Both the position numbers and the translations under genes were made by a program. This document shows, in pieces, positions 1 through 43,601 of a stretch of 64,000 nucleotides of DNA. The stretch comes from Promethearchaeota archaeon. GTDB taxonomy: Archaea; Asgardarchaeota; Lokiarchaeia; Sigyniarchaeales; SOKP01. Numbering within the stretch: the first letter of the stretch is position 1; each line of letters opens with the position of its first letter. The stretch lies in contig JAEOSU010000072.1 in the NCBI GenBank assembly GCA_016840165.1, forward strand, positions 160,001 to 224,000. Direction: 5' to 3'. The notes under the pieces were generated by a model that was not told the origin of the DNA, searched no databases, and saw nothing but the letters and a program-made list of their open reading frames with translations.

Positions 1-1203
1 CAAGATTTATTTTCGGATGAATTTTTCGATTATTTATCAAATTTCAAACCAAGATTGACGATTCGCACTATTGAGGATGGAAGAGTAATATTTCCTTATG
101 AAACTATTGCTCAAGTTGAAGGCCCTTTAATCCAATGCCAATTAATCGAAACTTATATTTTAAATTGCTTTAATTTTCCAACGCTATGTGCAACAAAGGC
201 AAATCGCATGTGGCTGACTTCCGTAAAGCAACCCATACTTGAGTTTGGGTTGAGAAGAGCTCAGGGACCAAATGGAGGGTTAACGGCTAGTGAGGCTGCT
301 ATGGTTGGAGGGTGTATAGGCACCTCGAACGTATTAGCAGGAAAAATGTATGATATTCGGATAAGTGGCACTCAAGCACATTCTTGGATAATGGCATTCG
401 ATACTGAATTGGAGGCATTTAGAGCCTATGCAGAAATCTATCCCAAAAACTGTATATTACTCATCGATACTTATGATACAATTGAAGGATGTAAAAATGC
501 AGTTATCGTTGGAAAGGAATTGGAAGAAAAAGGGGAAAAGCTCGCCGGAGTTCGCATAGATTCGGGCGATCTCGCATATTTCAGCCGTCAAGTTCGAAAG
601 ATTTTAGATGATGCAGGATTGGATTATGTGAAAGTGGTTGCCTCTAATGATGTGGATGAGTACATTATCGCTGAAATCCAGAGGAATAAGGGAGCTATTG
701 ATTTTTGGGGTATTGGTACAAAATTAGCTACATGTTATGACGATCCTGCACTTGGTGGTGTGTATAAATTGGTTGAAATCAATGATGAGCCGAAGATTAA
801 AATATCGAGTAATGTGGAAAAAATGACTATTCCCTCCAAAAAGCAAGTCTATAGGGTATATAATGGTGAAGGATTCATGTCGGGAGATATAATGGAACTA
901 AGAGAAAAGGAAGATTTAGAGGAGGGATATGTCTATGATCCTCTGAATCCAATGCGCTTTTATAATCTTAAGAATCCAGCAAGAGTTGAACCTTTACTCC
1001 ATTTAAGAATGGACGAGGGTAAAATAGTAAGTGAAATGAGCGATTGGAAGAAAGCGAGGGGATGTATGGAGAAAGATATTGAACTTTTACCTGATGCGTC
1101 AAAACGGTTATTAAATCCCCAGAATTATAGAGTAAGTATTAGTCATTCGATCCATGATCTTCGGAATCATTTAATCGAAACCTATATTGGTAAAGATAAA
1201 TAA
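1..1203 (+). CDS. pncB: Nicotinate phosphoribosyltransferase (5' truncated by window edge)
   Basis: Motifs EFGLRRAQG, GTSNV, GTQAHSW, LIDTYDT, GVRIDSGD, GIGTKL, LGGVYKL. The frame is open back to base 1 (QDLFSDEFFDYL...), so the true start lies upstream of the window. Confidence 0.93.
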   Translation, partial: QDLFSDEFFDYLSNFKPRLTIRTIEDGRVIFPYETIAQVEGPLIQCQLIETYILNCFNFPTLCATKANRMWLTSVKQPILEFGLRRAQGPNGGLTASEAAMVGGCIGTSNVLAGKMYDIRISGTQAHSWIMAFDTELEAFRAYAEIYPKNCILLIDTYDTIEGCKNAVIVGKELEEKGEKLAGVRIDSGDLAYFSRQVRKILDDAGLDYVKVVASNDVDEYIIAEIQRNKGAIDFWGIGTKLATCYDDPALGGVYKLVEINDEPKIKISSNVEKMTIPSKKQVYRVYNGEGFMSGDIMELREKEDLEEGYVYDPLNPMRFYNLKNPARVEPLLHLRMDEGKIVSEMSDWKKARGCMEKDIELLPDASKRLLNPQNYRVSISHSIHDLRNHLIETYIGKDK

Positions 1204-1271
1204 CGATTAATTAATTTCTTTATGATCAACTTATTTTCTCATGAGAAAGGATTAAGTTAAGGTTAACGACT

Positions 1272-3692
1272 ATGACTGAAGAATATATTATAAAATTATC
1301 TAATACTCTTGGTATAAATCAAAGCGCTCTTTTATTTAATGAAAAACGACCATACACCTTTTTAGTAGGTGCAGGAATATCAATGGATCCTCCTTCTAAT
1401 GTTCCTTCCGCACGCATGTTTGTGAGGGAATTATTTAACTATTACGCCCCTAAAAACGAAATTGATACTCTTTCTAAATTAGAGGCACTTAGATACGAAT
1501 TCTTAGTTGAAAAAATCCAGAACTTATTTGATGAAAAACTCACATTTTTAAATTATCTGGATTGGGTAACACACCCTAATGCCAATCATTTGTTTCTCGC
1601 GCATATGATCTTGAGATATAATTTTGTAATAACTACAAATTTCGATTATTTGATTGAATTAGCAGTTAAGAGTCTACTTTTGGGTTCAGAATATAAAAAG
1701 ATCATGAGTATTATTACAAGGGATGATTACGAGAAAAATATTAGATTTAAATATCCCGTGGTTAAAATACACGGCTCGAAACGAGATTGCATTACTGGCA
1801 GATATACCGCAGATTCATTGATTACTACAATTAGTGCACTTGGTAAGGATAGGGAAAAAGGAAAAACTTTCGCAATCGAACCCTTTAAAAGAAAATTAAT
1901 TGATAGTATCACAGAAGGTCGTGATCTCATTGTTATGGGATATTCTGGTAGTGACGACTTTGATATTAGCCCAATGCTGAATGAGTTAACGACCGTTAAA
2001 CGTATTATTTGGATTGATCATAATTCTGACCCAGACATAGAAGGATATTATAAATATAAGCCTTTAGATACGTCAAAATTAAATTTAATATCAAATCTTT
2101 CGAAGTTAGACAACATACTTCTCGAACTAGCTTCGAAAAATACGATCGAGGTATTCAAAATTAAGGCTAACACCATTAACTTTGTAAAACAAAAATTAGC
2201 GAAGACATTTCATGTCTCATTGGCTAATTTAAAAGAAAACATCCCAATAACACAGAAGAGTTTTAAGGATTTCATGGAAAAATACCACTTTGATAAACCT
2301 GAATCCTTCAAATATCGCTTGGCTCATGAAATTTACAGTGATTTAGGTAATATTGAATCGGCTGAAAGAACCGCTATAACTGGGTTAGATTTGGCAACTG
2401 AGGAAAGTAATGATATTAATAAATTGTATTTTACAAATGCGTTGGGATTATTATATCTCACCAGAGGAGATATGGATAAAGCTTTAGAACAATTTAATGA
2501 AACTCTCGAATTAACACAGAGATTAGACATGTTAAATGAAAAAATCGGAGTTCTCATTAATATTGGTGAACATTATAGGAAGAAAGGAGATTTGAAAAAT
2601 GCTTTTAAATATATATTCGAAGCGGCGGATCTTGTCTCAGAAAAGACTCCTAATGTATTAAAATATTCAATATTCAATAGTCTCGGAGTCATATATAGGG
2701 CAAATGGAGATGTACCAAATTCAATAAAACATCTTGAAATGGCACTTGAAGTTTCGGAAAAAATGGGAGATCTTTTTAGAAAGTCGTCAGTCTATAACAA
2801 TTTAGCGGGAATTTATTTTTACCAAGGACGATTAGACCCTGCATTAAAAAATGCATCTGAAGCTTTGAAGATTGATGAATTATTAGGAGATTTAGATGAT
2901 ATGGCCTCAAATCTAAACACTATTGGAAATATATATAGAATGGCTGGTCATTATACACAAGCTCTTACTTATTTGGAGCGCGCATATAACATTGCAGAAA
3001 AAATTAAGAAGTTAAAAGTAAAATCCCTTGCAGCTAACTCTATTGGGGGTATTTATTTCACATTAGGAAAACTTGATTCAGCATTAAAAATGTATAACGA
3101 AGCTTATGAAATAAGGAAGATTTTAGGAGATATCTCAGGACAAGCGACGAGTTTAAATAATATCGGGTTGATATATCGCGCAAGACGAGATTATAAGACT
3201 GCAAATGAGATGTTTACACAATCAATTGAAATAGCAGAAAGGATCGGAGAGAAAACTCATTTAAGCGTACGTTATTCCAATAAAGCATCAATATTCGAGG
3301 CAAAAAGAGATTTTGAAAAAGCATTAGAGGAATACAAAAAAGCTCTAGCCATGGAACAATCACAGCAAAACTTACACGGAGTTGCAACACAACTTATGAA
3401 TATTGGAGGGATTTTGGGCGATTTAGGTCGACGTGAAGAGAGTATTCAAAACTATACTAAAGCCCTCAATATGATGGAAGATTTGAAAATAAAACCAGGG
3501 ATTGCACGAGCACTTAATAACTTGGGTTCAGTATATTATAAGTTTAATAGGGATTTTGAAAAGGCTATTCCTATATTAGAGAGAGCTCTTGAAATATATC
3601 GGGAGATCGATGACCCTCAAATGTTAAATTTAACGCAACAAAATTTAGCGCATATCAAGCAGCAGTATGAGATTCAAAAGAGAGAGAACTAA
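1272..3692 (+). CDS. SIR2-like (SIR2_2) domain fused to a C-terminal TPR array
   Basis: N-terminal FLVGAGIS, ITTNFD, VKIHGS and MGYSGSD SIR2 motifs. The C-terminal half has about 10 repeats of ~40 aa of the type xxLNNIGxIYxxxGxYxxALxxYxxALxI. Confidence 0.88.
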   Translation: MTEEYIIKLSNTLGINQSALLFNEKRPYTFLVGAGISMDPPSNVPSARMFVRELFNYYAPKNEIDTLSKLEALRYEFLVEKIQNLFDEKLTFLNYLDWVTHPNANHLFLAHMILRYNFVITTNFDYLIELAVKSLLLGSEYKKIMSIITRDDYEKNIRFKYPVVKIHGSKRDCITGRYTADSLITTISALGKDREKGKTFAIEPFKRKLIDSITEGRDLIVMGYSGSDDFDISPMLNELTTVKRIIWIDHNSDPDIEGYYKYKPLDTSKLNLISNLSKLDNILLELASKNTIEVFKIKANTINFVKQKLAKTFHVSLANLKENIPITQKSFKDFMEKYHFDKPESFKYRLAHEIYSDLGNIESAERTAITGLDLATEESNDINKLYFTNALGLLYLTRGDMDKALEQFNETLELTQRLDMLNEKIGVLINIGEHYRKKGDLKNAFKYIFEAADLVSEKTPNVLKYSIFNSLGVIYRANGDVPNSIKHLEMALEVSEKMGDLFRKSSVYNNLAGIYFYQGRLDPALKNASEALKIDELLGDLDDMASNLNTIGNIYRMAGHYTQALTYLERAYNIAEKIKKLKVKSLAANSIGGIYFTLGKLDSALKMYNEAYEIRKILGDISGQATSLNNIGLIYRARRDYKTANEMFTQSIEIAERIGEKTHLSVRYSNKASIFEAKRDFEKALEEYKKALAMEQSQQNLHGVATQLMNIGGILGDLGRREESIQNYTKALNMMEDLKIKPGIARALNNLGSVYYKFNRDFEKAIPILERALEIYREIDDPQMLNLTQQNLAHIKQQYEIQKREN

Positions 3693-3872: not shown

Positions 3873-4433
3873 ATGACAGGACAAATCCCAGATAAAGTGA
3901 TTTTTAATGGTGATGTATTTGATTTGGTGGGCGTGAAAGGAGAAGGTTTATTTGAGCCATTTGATTTTGGATTAGTTCCTATTTCCCCTCATACTGCTAA
4001 CTGGCGTGGGTTTGTAAGTACTTATGAAGTATCCGAAGGTATACTTCTCCTTAAAGAATTGGAAGTCAGTATCAAGGATGAGGATCAATCATATCCAGAA
4101 ATTAATGGCATTCAACCAGAGTCCCGAAAAGAGAATTTAGTCCACTTAGATTATAAAAAGATAAATTTAAAGACTATGTATACAGGAACATTACTTATTG
4201 CTAAAGATTTTATTGATTCAATGTATGTTCATATGGGATTTCAGAGTCCCCTCTCGTTTGAAATAATTTTAGAGTTAGAATTTAAAGAGGGAAAATTGAT
4301 TAATCAAGAGAATGTATCCGACTTGATCAAAGAATATAGAGAGAAAGGTTACTCTGATGGTAAATTAGGACCTCAAGATGATGACTATATGAAATGGATT
4401 GAACGTACTTTTTCCCTTGATTATGAAATTTAG
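3873..4433 (+). CDS. Conserved-looking hypothetical protein
   Basis: 186-aa ORF preceded by a GGAGG Shine-Dalgarno-like motif. Motifs MTGQIPD, TANWRGFV and YVHMGF; function not recognised. Confidence 0.7.
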   Translation: MTGQIPDKVIFNGDVFDLVGVKGEGLFEPFDFGLVPISPHTANWRGFVSTYEVSEGILLLKELEVSIKDEDQSYPEINGIQPESRKENLVHLDYKKINLKTMYTGTLLIAKDFIDSMYVHMGFQSPLSFEIILELEFKEGKLINQENVSDLIKEYREKGYSDGKLGPQDDDYMKWIERTFSLDYEI

Positions 4434-4469: not shown

Positions 4470-5309
4470 TTATCCAGTTGGAGAGAAAACTCCTGCGAAG
4501 ACTAACCATGCTAAAAAGGTTTTGGAAACTAAACTGAGTATAATATATACTCTTTCACCGTATAAGTAATCTTTCCACTTACCTACTCCCTTATATTGGA
4601 GAATCATATTTATTGCAAAAGTATTAAAAAAGACCAACTCGATTATATAGATCAAATACACGAAAGTCGGAATCTCAGCTCCTTCTGATACTCCTGTATT
4701 TATGAAGTAGGCAGTAATCACGATCCACGGAACTGCTCCCGCTACCACTCCAAGATAATAAGCCGTCCATCTCACTTTTTCATTTAGTTTTCGGGTATAA
4801 ACATTGTGGAGTTCCATCATGAGACCAAACATGTTCATGAGTGCATTAGAGATAAAAATCATGAATAACGACCAGAAATCTAAGACTCCAAAAAACAAGG
4901 CAATTAGCACAATCATGATAGAACTGGAAAGCGCATATTCAAACCATCTAACTTTGTTAATTCCCTTCTTTAAGTCCCTTACGTATTTTTTATTTAAGGG
5001 ATAAGCAATAAGAAAGTGTGCGATGGCTGATAATAACAAAAATGTCCCAACGAAAGCTCCGAGAGCGGTAAACGTGAATATTACCTCAGGATTCGGTGAT
5101 AAAGTAGGTGGAGGTCCAAGATCAAATTCTAAATAAGTTGTATAAATATCAACTGAGAAATCTAAAAATGGTAAAAATCCGAAAAAGACCATAAGTAAGC
5201 CTTGAATCAAATGTAGAATCATCGCATTCCGATTAAACTTTTTTAGGTAATCAAAAGTTATATCTGATCTTGGGATTAACCATTCATCTTCATTTGTTGT
5301 AGAAGTCAT
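4470..5309 (-). CDS. Heliorhodopsin
   Basis: Seven hydrophobic helices; HLIQG (TM1 His), SAIAHF (TM2 His), RWFEYALSSSIM (TM3 counter-ion Glu), YLYGERVYIILSLVSKTFLAW (TM7 retinal Lys). Confidence 0.93.
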   Translation of the reverse strand: MTSTTNEDEWLIPRSDITFDYLKKFNRNAMILHLIQGLLMVFFGFLPFLDFSVDIYTTYLEFDLGPPPTLSPNPEVIFTFTALGAFVGTFLLLSAIAHFLIAYPLNKKYVRDLKKGINKVRWFEYALSSSIMIVLIALFFGVLDFWSLFMIFISNALMNMFGLMMELHNVYTRKLNEKVRWTAYYLGVVAGAVPWIVITAYFINTGVSEGAEIPTFVYLIYIIELVFFNTFAINMILQYKGVGKWKDYLYGERVYIILSLVSKTFLAWLVFAGVFSPTG

Positions 5310-16647: not shown

Positions 16648-17754
16648 TTATTTTTCTGAAAACTTTTTGGGAGGGATAAACACATCCCTCGGACCCAATC
16701 GCTCTAAATTAATTGCTTGTTCAGGGCAATGATGTGCACAAACACCACATCCAATACATTTTGTTTCATCAATTACTGCGATGTCATCAACTAAATCAAT
16801 TGCTTCTACTGGGCATTTCTGCTCACAAGTACCACAGCCAATACAATCTTCATCGGAAATTCTTGCAATATAGGAAGTTATGGTATGTAGCGGCATAACT
16901 CCTCGATAATACATCTGAAATGGCCCACAGCAGCATTTACAGCAATTACAGATCGCTTCAATATTATTTTTTGTATCTAGATGTACATGAAAGACCTTAT
17001 GGACTAAACCGTAATCCTCTGCCTCTTGAAAGATCTTTAGCGCATCTTCTTTAGAGATTTTTTGACCAAAATTCTGTTCGATAACAAACTGAGCACTTTT
17101 GTCAAAGAAAAAACAATTTTGTTTAGGTGCATTTAATTTACATGGATCATCCACTAGCTCTTTTTCAGTTCTACAATAACAATTTGAAACTGCAATATTA
17201 TCATAGTTGTTTAGTATTATTTTGATCTCTTCATATGGCATAACACTTTCAGTCCCAGGTTCAATTTGCTCTTCCACAGGTACGATTCTATCAAGAGCTG
17301 GTAAAGTTCTAAATTGTTCAATTATCGTGTCGTAATTTTTCTGAGTACCTTCTTTTAATTCTTCGAAAATTTCTTCAAAGAGATGAGCCTTTTTCCGATT
17401 TTTCTCCGTATTTCCACCTCGTAAAAATTGGTATTCAAATAAACCGGGCCACATAGGTAATAACCGATAAACCATAATACCTGTCGTTCGACTTGGAACC
17501 CCAACAATTACCCCTTGTTTCATCAGATCATTCAGTATTTCATGGATTTTGCTTAGACCTAATTTTGTTTTTTCCTTAATTTGTTCCAGATTCATAGTCT
17601 GTGTTTTAAAATTCAAAATAAATTGTGCTTGCTCTTCCGTCATGATGAGCTTTAATAATTCTATCACCGTAGAACTAATAGGCATAGGCATTTTACCAAC
17701 TTTCGCAATTGTTCTCGCGGCACGATACCATAACTTTTCAGACTGTTCTGACAT
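16648..17754 (-). CDS. Fe-S protein: N-terminal winged-helix-like region, Cys-rich core and C-terminal 2[4Fe-4S] ferredoxin domain
   Basis: CIGCGTCEQKCP and CIGCGVCAHHCP; CYCR; ICNCCKCCC. Start placed at ATG 17754 (MSEQSEK); the ORF track opens at 17790. Confidence 0.82.
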   Translation of the reverse strand: MSEQSEKLWYRAARTIAKVGKMPMPISSTVIELLKLIMTEEQAQFILNFKTQTMNLEQIKEKTKLGLSKIHEILNDLMKQGVIVGVPSRTTGIMVYRLLPMWPGLFEYQFLRGGNTEKNRKKAHLFEEIFEELKEGTQKNYDTIIEQFRTLPALDRIVPVEEQIEPGTESVMPYEEIKIILNNYDNIAVSNCYCRTEKELVDDPCKLNAPKQNCFFFDKSAQFVIEQNFGQKISKEDALKIFQEAEDYGLVHKVFHVHLDTKNNIEAICNCCKCCCGPFQMYYRGVMPLHTITSYIARISDEDCIGCGTCEQKCPVEAIDLVDDIAVIDETKCIGCGVCAHHCPEQAINLERLGPRDVFIPPKKFSEK

Positions 17755-42830: not shown

Positions 42831-43601
42831 TCATTGATTTGCATTTTTAACTTTCTCTACAATTATTGGGAAAACATCTCCAATTTTATCATGGATGACC
42901 ACATCAGCATATCTATCAATAGGTGTTTCTTGAATATTGATAATTACTAGCTTAGCTCCTAGCGATAAGGCTTTATCAGGATAACTTGCCGCAGGATAGA
43001 CTAATAAAGAACTTCCTAATACAATCATTAGATCACAGTCCTCAATCATTTTATCAGCGTTTATGAGCGTTTCAGATAACAAAGGCTCTCCAAAGAAGAT
43101 CGCGTTTGGTTTCAATAATCCATTACATACCTCACATGAAGGAGAATAATTGCCTTGTAATACTTGATTTATCATAGTAGTAATAGGAAAAACTTTATGG
43201 CATCGTATACACCTTGATTCATTTGCAGTGCCATGAAGTTCAATAATGTTTTTTGTATGGGCTTTCTGATGCAGTCCGTCAATATTTTGAGTAATAACTC
43301 CTTTTAATTTCCCCATTTTCTGTAACTTAGTTATTACCTTGTGTCCTCTGTTTGGTTTTGCACGAAAAATGTTCATACCCATTTCAAGCATAAATTTTAG
43401 GTTTTTGCTTGTATTTGCGACATAAGAATTAATACTGCCAAATTCATAGGGGTCTACTTTTTCCCATAAACCCGTGTTAGGGGATCTAAAATCAGCAATC
43501 CCCGATTCGGTACTCATGCCCGCTCCGGTTAGTATCACAATATTTTGGGCTTTTTGGATTAATTCTACAACTTTTTCGATTTTCTCTTCCAAATTACTCA
43601 T
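42831..43601 (-). CDS. cobB: NAD-dependent protein deacylase, Sir2/CobB family
   Basis: TGAGMSTESGIADFR, TQNIDGLH, ELHG, CIRC...CEVC zinc site, FFGE, GSSLLVYPAA. Confidence 0.93.
   Translation of the reverse strand: MSNLEEKIEKVVELIQKAQNIVILTGAGMSTESGIADFRSPNTGLWEKVDPYEFGSINSYVANTSKNLKFMLEMGMNIFRAKPNRGHKVITKLQKMGKLKGVITQNIDGLHQKAHTKNIIELHGTANESRCIRCHKVFPITTMINQVLQGNYSPSCEVCNGLLKPNAIFFGEPLLSETLINADKMIEDCDLMIVLGSSLLVYPAASYPDKALSLGAKLVIINIQETPIDRYADVVIHDKIGDVFPIIVEKVKNANQ

Follow-up and report, generated by a model that had tools for sequence, protein, structure and literature searches.

In the defence proteins ThsA, DSR2 and KomC, an asparagine and a histidine of the SIR2 domain form the catalytic pair of an NADase. 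In DSR2, the sensor is described as a MID domain together with a HEAT-like solenoid (PMC11850899), and in Avs5, where a SIR2 effector and a C-terminal sensor of the tetratricopeptide repeat (TPR) type belong to the same protein, a central STAND NTPase drives oligomerisation. Here we analyse a 64,000-nucleotide (nt) stretch of a Promethearchaeota archaeon (GenBank assembly GCA_016840165.1, contig JAEOSU010000072.1, positions 160,001 to 224,000), hereafter the window, which contains near its start a gene for a protein that joins a SIR2 domain to a TPR array. The gene lies downstream of pncB, which encodes nicotinate phosphoribosyltransferase. This SIR2-TPR protein has intact catalytic motifs and a defence-type fold, and its close orthologs are patchily distributed and change location between genomes. 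The interpretation that we favour, with moderate confidence, is that it would act as a ligand-gated NADase comparable to DSR2, as an accessory member of an Asgard family whose position behind pncB is incidental.

SIR2 domain and TPR array

The residues listed in an initial annotation of the window, which was made from the sequence alone, are all present: the Asn of TTNFD (motif at 121; Asn123, codon at nt 1638-1640), the His of KIHGS (motif at 165; His167, codon at nt 1770-1772) and the loop GYSGSDDFD at 223-231, to which GAGIS at 33-37 can be added. The zinc-binding CxxC pairs are missing, as had been stated; the 806 amino acids (aa) include a single cysteine and no CxxC. Conservation was assessed in two alignments, one of 23 SIR2 domains from paralogs and orthologs (A1) and one of 44 full-length relatives (A2). 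A1 shows no variation at G33, A34, S37, N123 or D125 or in the GYSG loop, and has H167 in at least 90% of its sequences; A2 shows none at either Asn123 or His167; and in both, GAGxS, TxNxD, HG and GYSGSDDFD are fully or almost fully conserved. The catalytic role of the histidine is reflected in the titles of the Protein Data Bank (PDB) entries for DSR2(H171A) and KomBC(H146N).

The Pfam family SIR2_2 (PF13289) matched residues 118-239 with 28.9 bits against a cut-off of 24.5, a weak match, and scores 32-50 bits in relatives of the protein. The fold assignment was also drawn from structure comparison. Searches of PDB chains by sequence were similarly weak, the single SIR2 domain returning noise only and a profile of the 23 family domains reaching a best E of 0.0016, with the SPARSA Sir2 protein, whose TTNFD aligned with that of the family, so that a comparison of folds was needed. 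The AlphaFold2 model of the N-terminal domain (predicted local distance difference test, pLDDT, 87; predicted TM-score, pTM, 0.90) gave VIA Z scores of 20.7 with SPARSA Sir2, 18.0 with ThsA, 17.8 with KomC, 17.6 with DSR2, 15.4 with Avs5 and 15.1 with SIR2-HerA, followed by SIRT3 (14.3) and FAM118B (14.2), and Foldseek placed the same structures at the top. With SIR2_2 above its cut-off and the defence NADases above SIRT3, profile comparison and structure prediction bear out the earlier assignment to the SIR2_2 rather than the sirtuin class. Profile, motifs and predicted fold thus place the domain, with its motifs intact, in the defence-type (SIR2_2/SIRim) class and not among the sirtuin deacylases. 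In two broader searches, the ESM Atlas returned generic bacterial stand-alone SIR2_2 clusters only, and tblastn against 50,697 phage records gave no match.

The class assignment bears directly on one alternative, namely that the protein is a deacylase or mono-ADP-ribosyltransferase recruited to its targets by the TPRs and performing sirtuin-like chemistry on proteins. Sirtuins do share the Asn/His Rossmann core, as the Z score of SIRT3 illustrates, and TPRs are classic substrate adaptors. However, Pfam matched the protein to SIR2_2 and not to the sirtuin profile PF02146, the single cysteine excludes a Cys4 zinc ribbon, so that the zinc module is missing, and the defence NADases stand 3-6 Z units above the sirtuins. 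Moreover, a canonical CobB is available in the genome as a deacylase; this sirtuin lies in the window where the initial annotation had placed it and has the CxxC pairs it had reported. We consider this alternative highly improbable.

The array that follows the SIR2 domain is regular. In the full-length AlphaFold2 model (pLDDT 87.9, pTM 0.77), residues 344-805 form 23 helices, which correspond to 11 TPRs of exactly 40 residues each and a capping helix, and Pfam matched TPR_12 (259 bits) and further TPR models over about 345-800. No Walker A motif was found in a scan of the protein sequence, and no NTPase family was matched by Pfam. Thus, the initial description of a fusion with no STAND NTPase between its two parts stands, whereas its count of about 10 repeats was slightly low. 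All but one of the 11 TPRs have an asparagine at position 6-7 of the repeat, and several Asn and Gly columns of the array are invariant among the 44 sequences of A2. The best Foldseek matches of this part of the model were LGN/Pins (23-25% identity), followed by TSK and OGT, which are peptide-binding superhelices. In TPRs of the LGN type, a ladder of asparagines binds the backbone of an extended peptide; by analogy, the Asn ladder of the SIR2-TPR protein may do the same. The coordinates of these parts and of the neighbouring features are collected in Table 1.

Table 1. Features of the SIR2-TPR locus and the CobB gene, in window coordinates
Feature	Position	Strand	Basis
pncB, nicotinate phosphoribosyltransferase, 5' end cut by window start	1..1203	+	NCBIfam, Pfam
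Intergenic spacer between pncB and SIR2-TPR gene, 68 nt	1204..1271	+	read directly
SIR2-TPR gene, 806 aa and stop, co-oriented with pncB	1272..3692	+	open reading frame (ORF), Pfam
SIR2_2/SIRim-type Rossmann domain, aa 1-313	1272..2210	+	Pfam, alignments, AlphaFold2, VIA
Short linker, aa 314-343, one helix, no NTPase	2211..2300	+	AlphaFold2 secondary structure
TPR superhelix, aa 344-806, 11 repeats and C-terminal cap helix	2301..3689	+	AlphaFold2, Pfam, Foldseek
Relic of pncB 3' end, last 26 codons and TAA	3746..3837	+	direct repeat with 1122-1213
ORF186, accessory, between relic and heliorhodopsin gene	3873..4433	+	ORF
Heliorhodopsin gene, conserved downstream boundary of variable spot	4470..5309	-	Pfam PF18761, 302 bits
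CobB sirtuin, 256 aa, CIRC...CEVC	42831-43601	-	sequence read

With a conserved Asn/His pair and a TPR array that is joined to the SIR2 domain without an NTPase, a TPR-gated NADase is the most economical mechanism. Under this model, the eleven LGN-like repeats would form a superhelix with an Asn-lined groove that takes up an extended segment of a particular protein. Binding of this ligand would relieve autoinhibition or drive oligomerisation of the N-terminal SIR2 domains, which would then hydrolyse NAD+ to ADP-ribose and nicotinamide via Asn123 and His167, so that either NAD+ falls or an ADP-ribose-type signal is made. According to the titles of their PDB entries, the solved SIR2 relatives all act as oligomers or filaments. 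The single-protein bacterial sensor DSR2 works in this manner; for the SIR2-TPR protein, we infer NADase activity, ligand gating and a physiological role.

A highly conserved, family-specific segment (residues 185-206, window 1824-1889; TTISALGKD..GKTFAIEPFK) follows the catalytic histidine. It is disordered in both AlphaFold2 models, with pLDDT below 50 at 188-199, and is a candidate regulatory or substrate loop.

Family, distribution and the immune and cellular readings

When 1.84 billion cluster representatives were searched with a profile, 577 clusters at 50% identity scored E<=1e-30 and 2077 scored E<=1e-10. The best 150 clusters all fall below 1e-100 and range from 310 to 3154 aa in length, and all named members of the family are Asgard archaea; among them is P0111 of Promethearchaeum syntrophicum. 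Among 151 Asgard genomes searched with the SIR2 profile, matches were found in 23 of the 27 genomes of this order, each with 1-8 copies that lie in frames of 600-1374 aa, and in none of the 124 sampled genomes outside it; the genome analysed here (G000) has four copies, on contigs C54, C15, C9 and C51. The length of the TPR array varies across the family. Between subfamilies, the SIR2 domains are 50% identical and the TPR arrays 30%, which indicates a constant effector combined with subfamily-specific sensors. Of the 13 genomes of the genus, 12 contain a sister subfamily whose members are about 1360 aa long. Some relatives (P0147, P0149, P0241 and P0132) carry N-terminal additions, namely E2 ubiquitin-conjugating, TATA-binding protein (TBP), leucine-rich repeat (LRR) and DUF4062 domains, the last of which we take to be TIR-like; the E2 addition, seen in a cluster of three members, is probably a real fusion. 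Another relative, P0124, has four matched SIR2 stretches within its 3154 aa.

We found no description of an Asgard SIR2-TPR family in the literature. A preprint on SIRim proteins includes Asgard genomes and covers TPR-like and NACHT fusions to SIRim in eukaryotes, and the Asgard SIR2-TPR expansion is not described in those of its passages that were consulted (bioRxiv 10.1101/2024.09.18.613514). We count the gene among the accessory members of this very large family, which is present in several copies in some genomes.

The subfamily to which the gene belongs is patchy and changes location, like accessory genes. Full-length orthologs of 806-816 aa occur in G104, G083, G071 and G135 and in metagenomes; at more than 55% identity, orthologs are present in three of the 12 genus-mates (G104, G083 and G071) and in G135, which belongs to another genus, and the nine genus-mates that lack one are 85-100% complete. 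In the tree of SIR2 domains, this orthogroup is a clade with 100/100 support. Its internal identity is 70% for the SIR2 domain and 64% for the TPR array, the length of which is fixed. The G135 ortholog groups with that of G071 inside the clade of this genus (100/98), a placement that hints at transfer between genera. The orthologs lie in four unrelated contexts. Among the four ortholog genomes, only G104 shares the neighbourhood seen in the window; the flanking genes encode ornithine decarboxylase, a major facilitator superfamily (MFS) transporter and a ferredoxin-domain protein in G083, UDP-glucose dehydrogenase and pyruvate:ferredoxin oxidoreductase in G071, and CoA ligases in G135. The G071 locus (L047) is syntenic with positions 7956-11659 of contig C12 in G000, where the site of the SIR2-TPR gene holds three other genes. 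The three paralogs in G000 are likewise found among housekeeping genes.

The three genes that occupy the variable spot on C12 encode an alpha/beta-hydrolase-like protein and proteins of 426 and 360 aa, and lie between the genes for the pyruvate:ferredoxin oxidoreductase beta subunit and UDP-glucose dehydrogenase.

The role in antiviral defence that the initial annotation had envisaged gained nothing from the search for known systems. In the window, PADLOC returned weak SIR2/TPR domain matches for the gene and called no system; elsewhere in the window it reported only the generic radical-SAM similarity of a tetraether-synthase-like gene. At eight family loci, neither Pfam nor PADLOC identified known defence genes in the flanks, which consist of housekeeping or uncharacterised genes, with no PADLOC match in ten immediate neighbours, although this negative is weak evidence because defence islands of Asgard archaea are poorly defined. 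These results weigh against the interpretation that we favour, as do several others. Among the orthologs, identity in the TPR array (64%) comes close to that in the SIR2 domain (70%) and the array is fixed in length, which is not the hypervariability of an arms-race sensor; a cellular role accounts for the near-universal sister subfamily of about 1360 aa no less well than an immune role would; and the junction between pncB and the SIR2 domain is kept down to 71% protein identity, so that weak selection on it is possible.

Much of this evidence would suit a non-immune switch, in which a regulator that consumes NAD+ would sense a protein of the cell itself and either adjust NAD+/ADP-ribose levels or ADP-ribosylate a target. 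Such a switch would be in keeping with the housekeeping neighbours at all eight family loci, with the conserved, fixed-length TPR arrays of the orthogroup, with a sister subfamily that is nearly universal in the genus, with TPRs of the LGN/Pins scaffold type and with the E2 ubiquitin-conjugating or TBP additions, which point to cellular pathways. However, the subfamily is missing from nine of 12 genus-mates despite their completeness, changes of locus and a tree incongruent with the genus are unusual for a core regulator, and the closest folds are all abortive-infection NADases. In short, the patchiness and relocation speak for an accessory, conflict-type role and the housekeeping neighbourhoods and conserved TPR arrays for a cellular switch, which we regard as possible but doubtful. 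Equally tentative is a broader form of the immune reading, in which the SIR2-TPR proteins of Loki-type Asgard archaea would constitute an NTPase-free repertoire of innate-immune receptors. It would comprise hundreds of subfamilies that combine a constant NADase with a varied TPR sensor, some of them with LRR, TIR-like (DUF4062) or E2 additions, and its accessory members would come and go at variable chromosomal spots.

The pncB neighbourhood and the variable spot downstream

The identity of the upstream gene is clear: the pncB frame in the window matches the NCBIfam models NF006695 (493 bits, cut-off 469) and TIGR01513 (461 bits) as well as the N-terminal, catalytic and C-terminal NAPRTase domains of Pfam; the full frame in the genome is about 458-474 aa long, and the gene is present in a single copy. 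The SIR2-TPR fusion follows it at the distance and in the orientation given by the initial annotation, the gap being counted from the pncB stop codon (1201-1203). The same annotation had proposed that the two genes might be co-expressed, with the salvage enzyme buffering or restoring NAD+ after the NADase fires. Co-orientation and a gap of 67-68 nt in both G000 and the metagenome contig L090 are compatible with this pairing, as is the order pncB-SIR2-TPR-heliorhodopsin kept in G104, where the SIR2-TPR proteins are 71% identical.

Comparison across genomes speaks against it. A pncB gene lies directly upstream only in G000, L090 (SIR2-TPR 85% and pncB 90.5% identical, gap 67 nt) and G104/L093 (71% and 86%; gap 197 nt in G104), that is, in one shallow clade, all cases of which also share the downstream heliorhodopsin gene. 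Adjacency is thus essentially confined to this genome, which counts against the pairing, with the qualification that its closest relatives share it. No pncB is present at the deeper ortholog loci in G083, G071 and G135 or at the three paralog loci of G000. The taxonomic family has two types of pncB, and the type in the window (66-86% identical) occurs in nine other genomes; the eight loci that remain when G104 is set aside show no SIR2-TPR gene within 1.5 kb of it, and in 11 further genomes where both were located, pncB and SIR2 domains are on different contigs. The chemistry is also mismatched: a SIR2 NADase releases nicotinamide, PncB consumes nicotinate, and PncA links the two. The family of PncA and isochorismatase (PF00857) had no match in this 99.7%-complete genome, although the control search matched 11 of 14 reference genomes. 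Coupling to pncB hence seems to us very unlikely. The adjacency looks incidental, a local accident of a recombination-prone spot with no functional pairing. As the idea of an NADase paired with a salvage enzyme fails, the specific added value of this gene is small: it is a real but non-unique member of its family.

With pncB present and PF00857 unmatched, the route of nicotinamide recycling in G000 is unclear. The pncB loci compared (window 1-1203; L039-L041 and L049-L074) provided two further observations. Among the remaining genus-mates, pncB was located in six, all with a type that is only 44-50% identical, and the type of G000 and G104 is otherwise found in other genera, so that the pncB of this species group has the appearance of a xenologous replacement. 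In addition, proteins of about 378 aa with a C-terminal 4Fe-4S domain are encoded near three SIR2-TPR loci (window 16657-17730, minus strand; L046:11060-12196; L075:6749-7888), and the same family adjoins the second pncB type in two genomes (L039 and L061). We considered this protein as a linked gene and rejected it: it belongs to a multi-paralog family, the copies are 28-39% identical and also occur elsewhere, and the proximity is probably a coincidence.

Downstream of the SIR2-TPR gene, the sequence contains a relic of pncB. The true 3' end of pncB (1122-1213) and the relic form a direct repeat of 92 nt, 78% identical, that brackets the SIR2-TPR gene, with the stop codon of the relic in register with that of pncB. 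Weaker homology extends back in the direction of about 3700, with a 15-nt insertion, and tblastn aligned 25 aa of the relic with pncB residues 375-399 at 76% identity. In a comparison of 81 nt, the identity of the relic is 80% with the pncB of G000, 86% with that of L090 and 80% with that of G104, and the pncB genes of G000 and L090 are 94% identical over the same 81 nt. No relic is present in L090, L091 or L093 despite the same order of pncB, SIR2-TPR and heliorhodopsin genes. The notion that the relic is an insertion scar of a SIR2-TPR cassette was not kept as a firm interpretation, given that these relatives lack it and that it is not closest to its own pncB. No bracketing repeats were found around the orthologs in G083, G071, G135 and G104, no empty site, with pncB followed by ORF186, was seen among the eight loci of the same pncB type, and none of 11 ORF186 homologs has a pncB relic beside it. 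Two scenarios for the origin of the relic are an old duplication later deleted in the relatives and an import, together with ORF186, from a third lineage.

ORF186 itself matched no family in Pfam, NCBIfam or PADLOC. It occurs in 12 of 61 genomes of the taxonomic family, and about half of the homologs listed contain in-frame stops. It is missing in G104 and L091, and no intact copy is present in L090, L091 or L093, but in L090 what appear to be its first nine codons directly follow the SIR2-TPR stop. The heliorhodopsin gene beyond it has counterparts of 91-98% identity at the corresponding position in G104 and L090-L093. It is safe to describe the stretch from pncB to the heliorhodopsin gene as a variable spot prone to recombination.

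Comparison with described systems

If the Asgard SIR2-TPR proteins are ligand-gated NADases, the one-protein logic of DSR2, with sensor and effector in a single chain, extends to archaea, and does so in the closest lineage to eukaryotes, with a TPR array of eukaryote-like type as the sensor. A family of this size and with so variable a copy number would then represent a major component of Asgard biology that has yet to be described. Should the receptor-repertoire reading be true as well, the family would be an archaeal counterpart, in this same lineage, of the expansions of NLR-type receptors.

The described systems each resemble the SIR2-TPR protein in part. DSR2 of Bacillus subtilis (PDB 8wyb, 8wkt, 8z18) shares the N-terminal SIR2_2-type head with the Asn/His pair, a sensor made of helical repeats and the lack of an NTPase, and its structure superimposes with a root-mean-square deviation of 3.4 over 246 residues (Z 17.6), the SIR2 domains being 18-20% identical. 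However, the sensor of the SIR2-TPR protein consists of 11 canonical 40-residue TPRs instead of the MID domain and HEAT-like solenoid; it lacks domains of the DSR2-type MID and C-terminal kind, and the DSR profiles of PADLOC gave no match at E<=0.01. DSR2 is bacterial, is activated by a phage tail tube protein and is found in defence contexts, whereas the SIR2-TPR gene is Asgard-only and lies among housekeeping genes.

The best structural match is the Sir2-APAZ protein of SPARSA (PDB 8y80, 8jl0, 8in8; Z 20.7, 261 residues aligned), and Aga_SIR2 is the best-matching SIR2 model of PADLOC (28 bits). SPARSA combines APAZ with a short Argonaute, whereas the SIR2-TPR protein has its TPR array in place of APAZ, and no APAZ or PIWI family was matched in the protein or in the neighbouring ORFs that were scanned. 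Avs5 (AVAST type 5, SIR2-STAND-TPR; PDB 9nc9, 9jap; PMC12931631) shares the SIR2 effector and the C-terminal TPR-type sensor (Z 15.4), but where Avs5 has its STAND NTPase, the SIR2-TPR protein has a linker of 30 residues and no P-loop. In Thoeris, ThsA contains a SLOG/Macro sensor and has the TIR protein ThsB as its partner; neither occurs in the SIR2-TPR locus, where the protein matches only SIR2_2 and TPR families in Pfam and the neighbouring genes are pncB, ORF186 and the heliorhodopsin gene. Among the SIRim proteins (FAM118B/SIRanc), the SIR2-TPR protein falls in the same SIR2_2/SIRim half as FAM118B (Z 14.2), which differs from it in having no TPR array. Taken together, these comparisons place the SIR2-TPR protein outside DSR2, Avs, Thoeris and SPARSA, as each of the four fails to match it in a defining feature.

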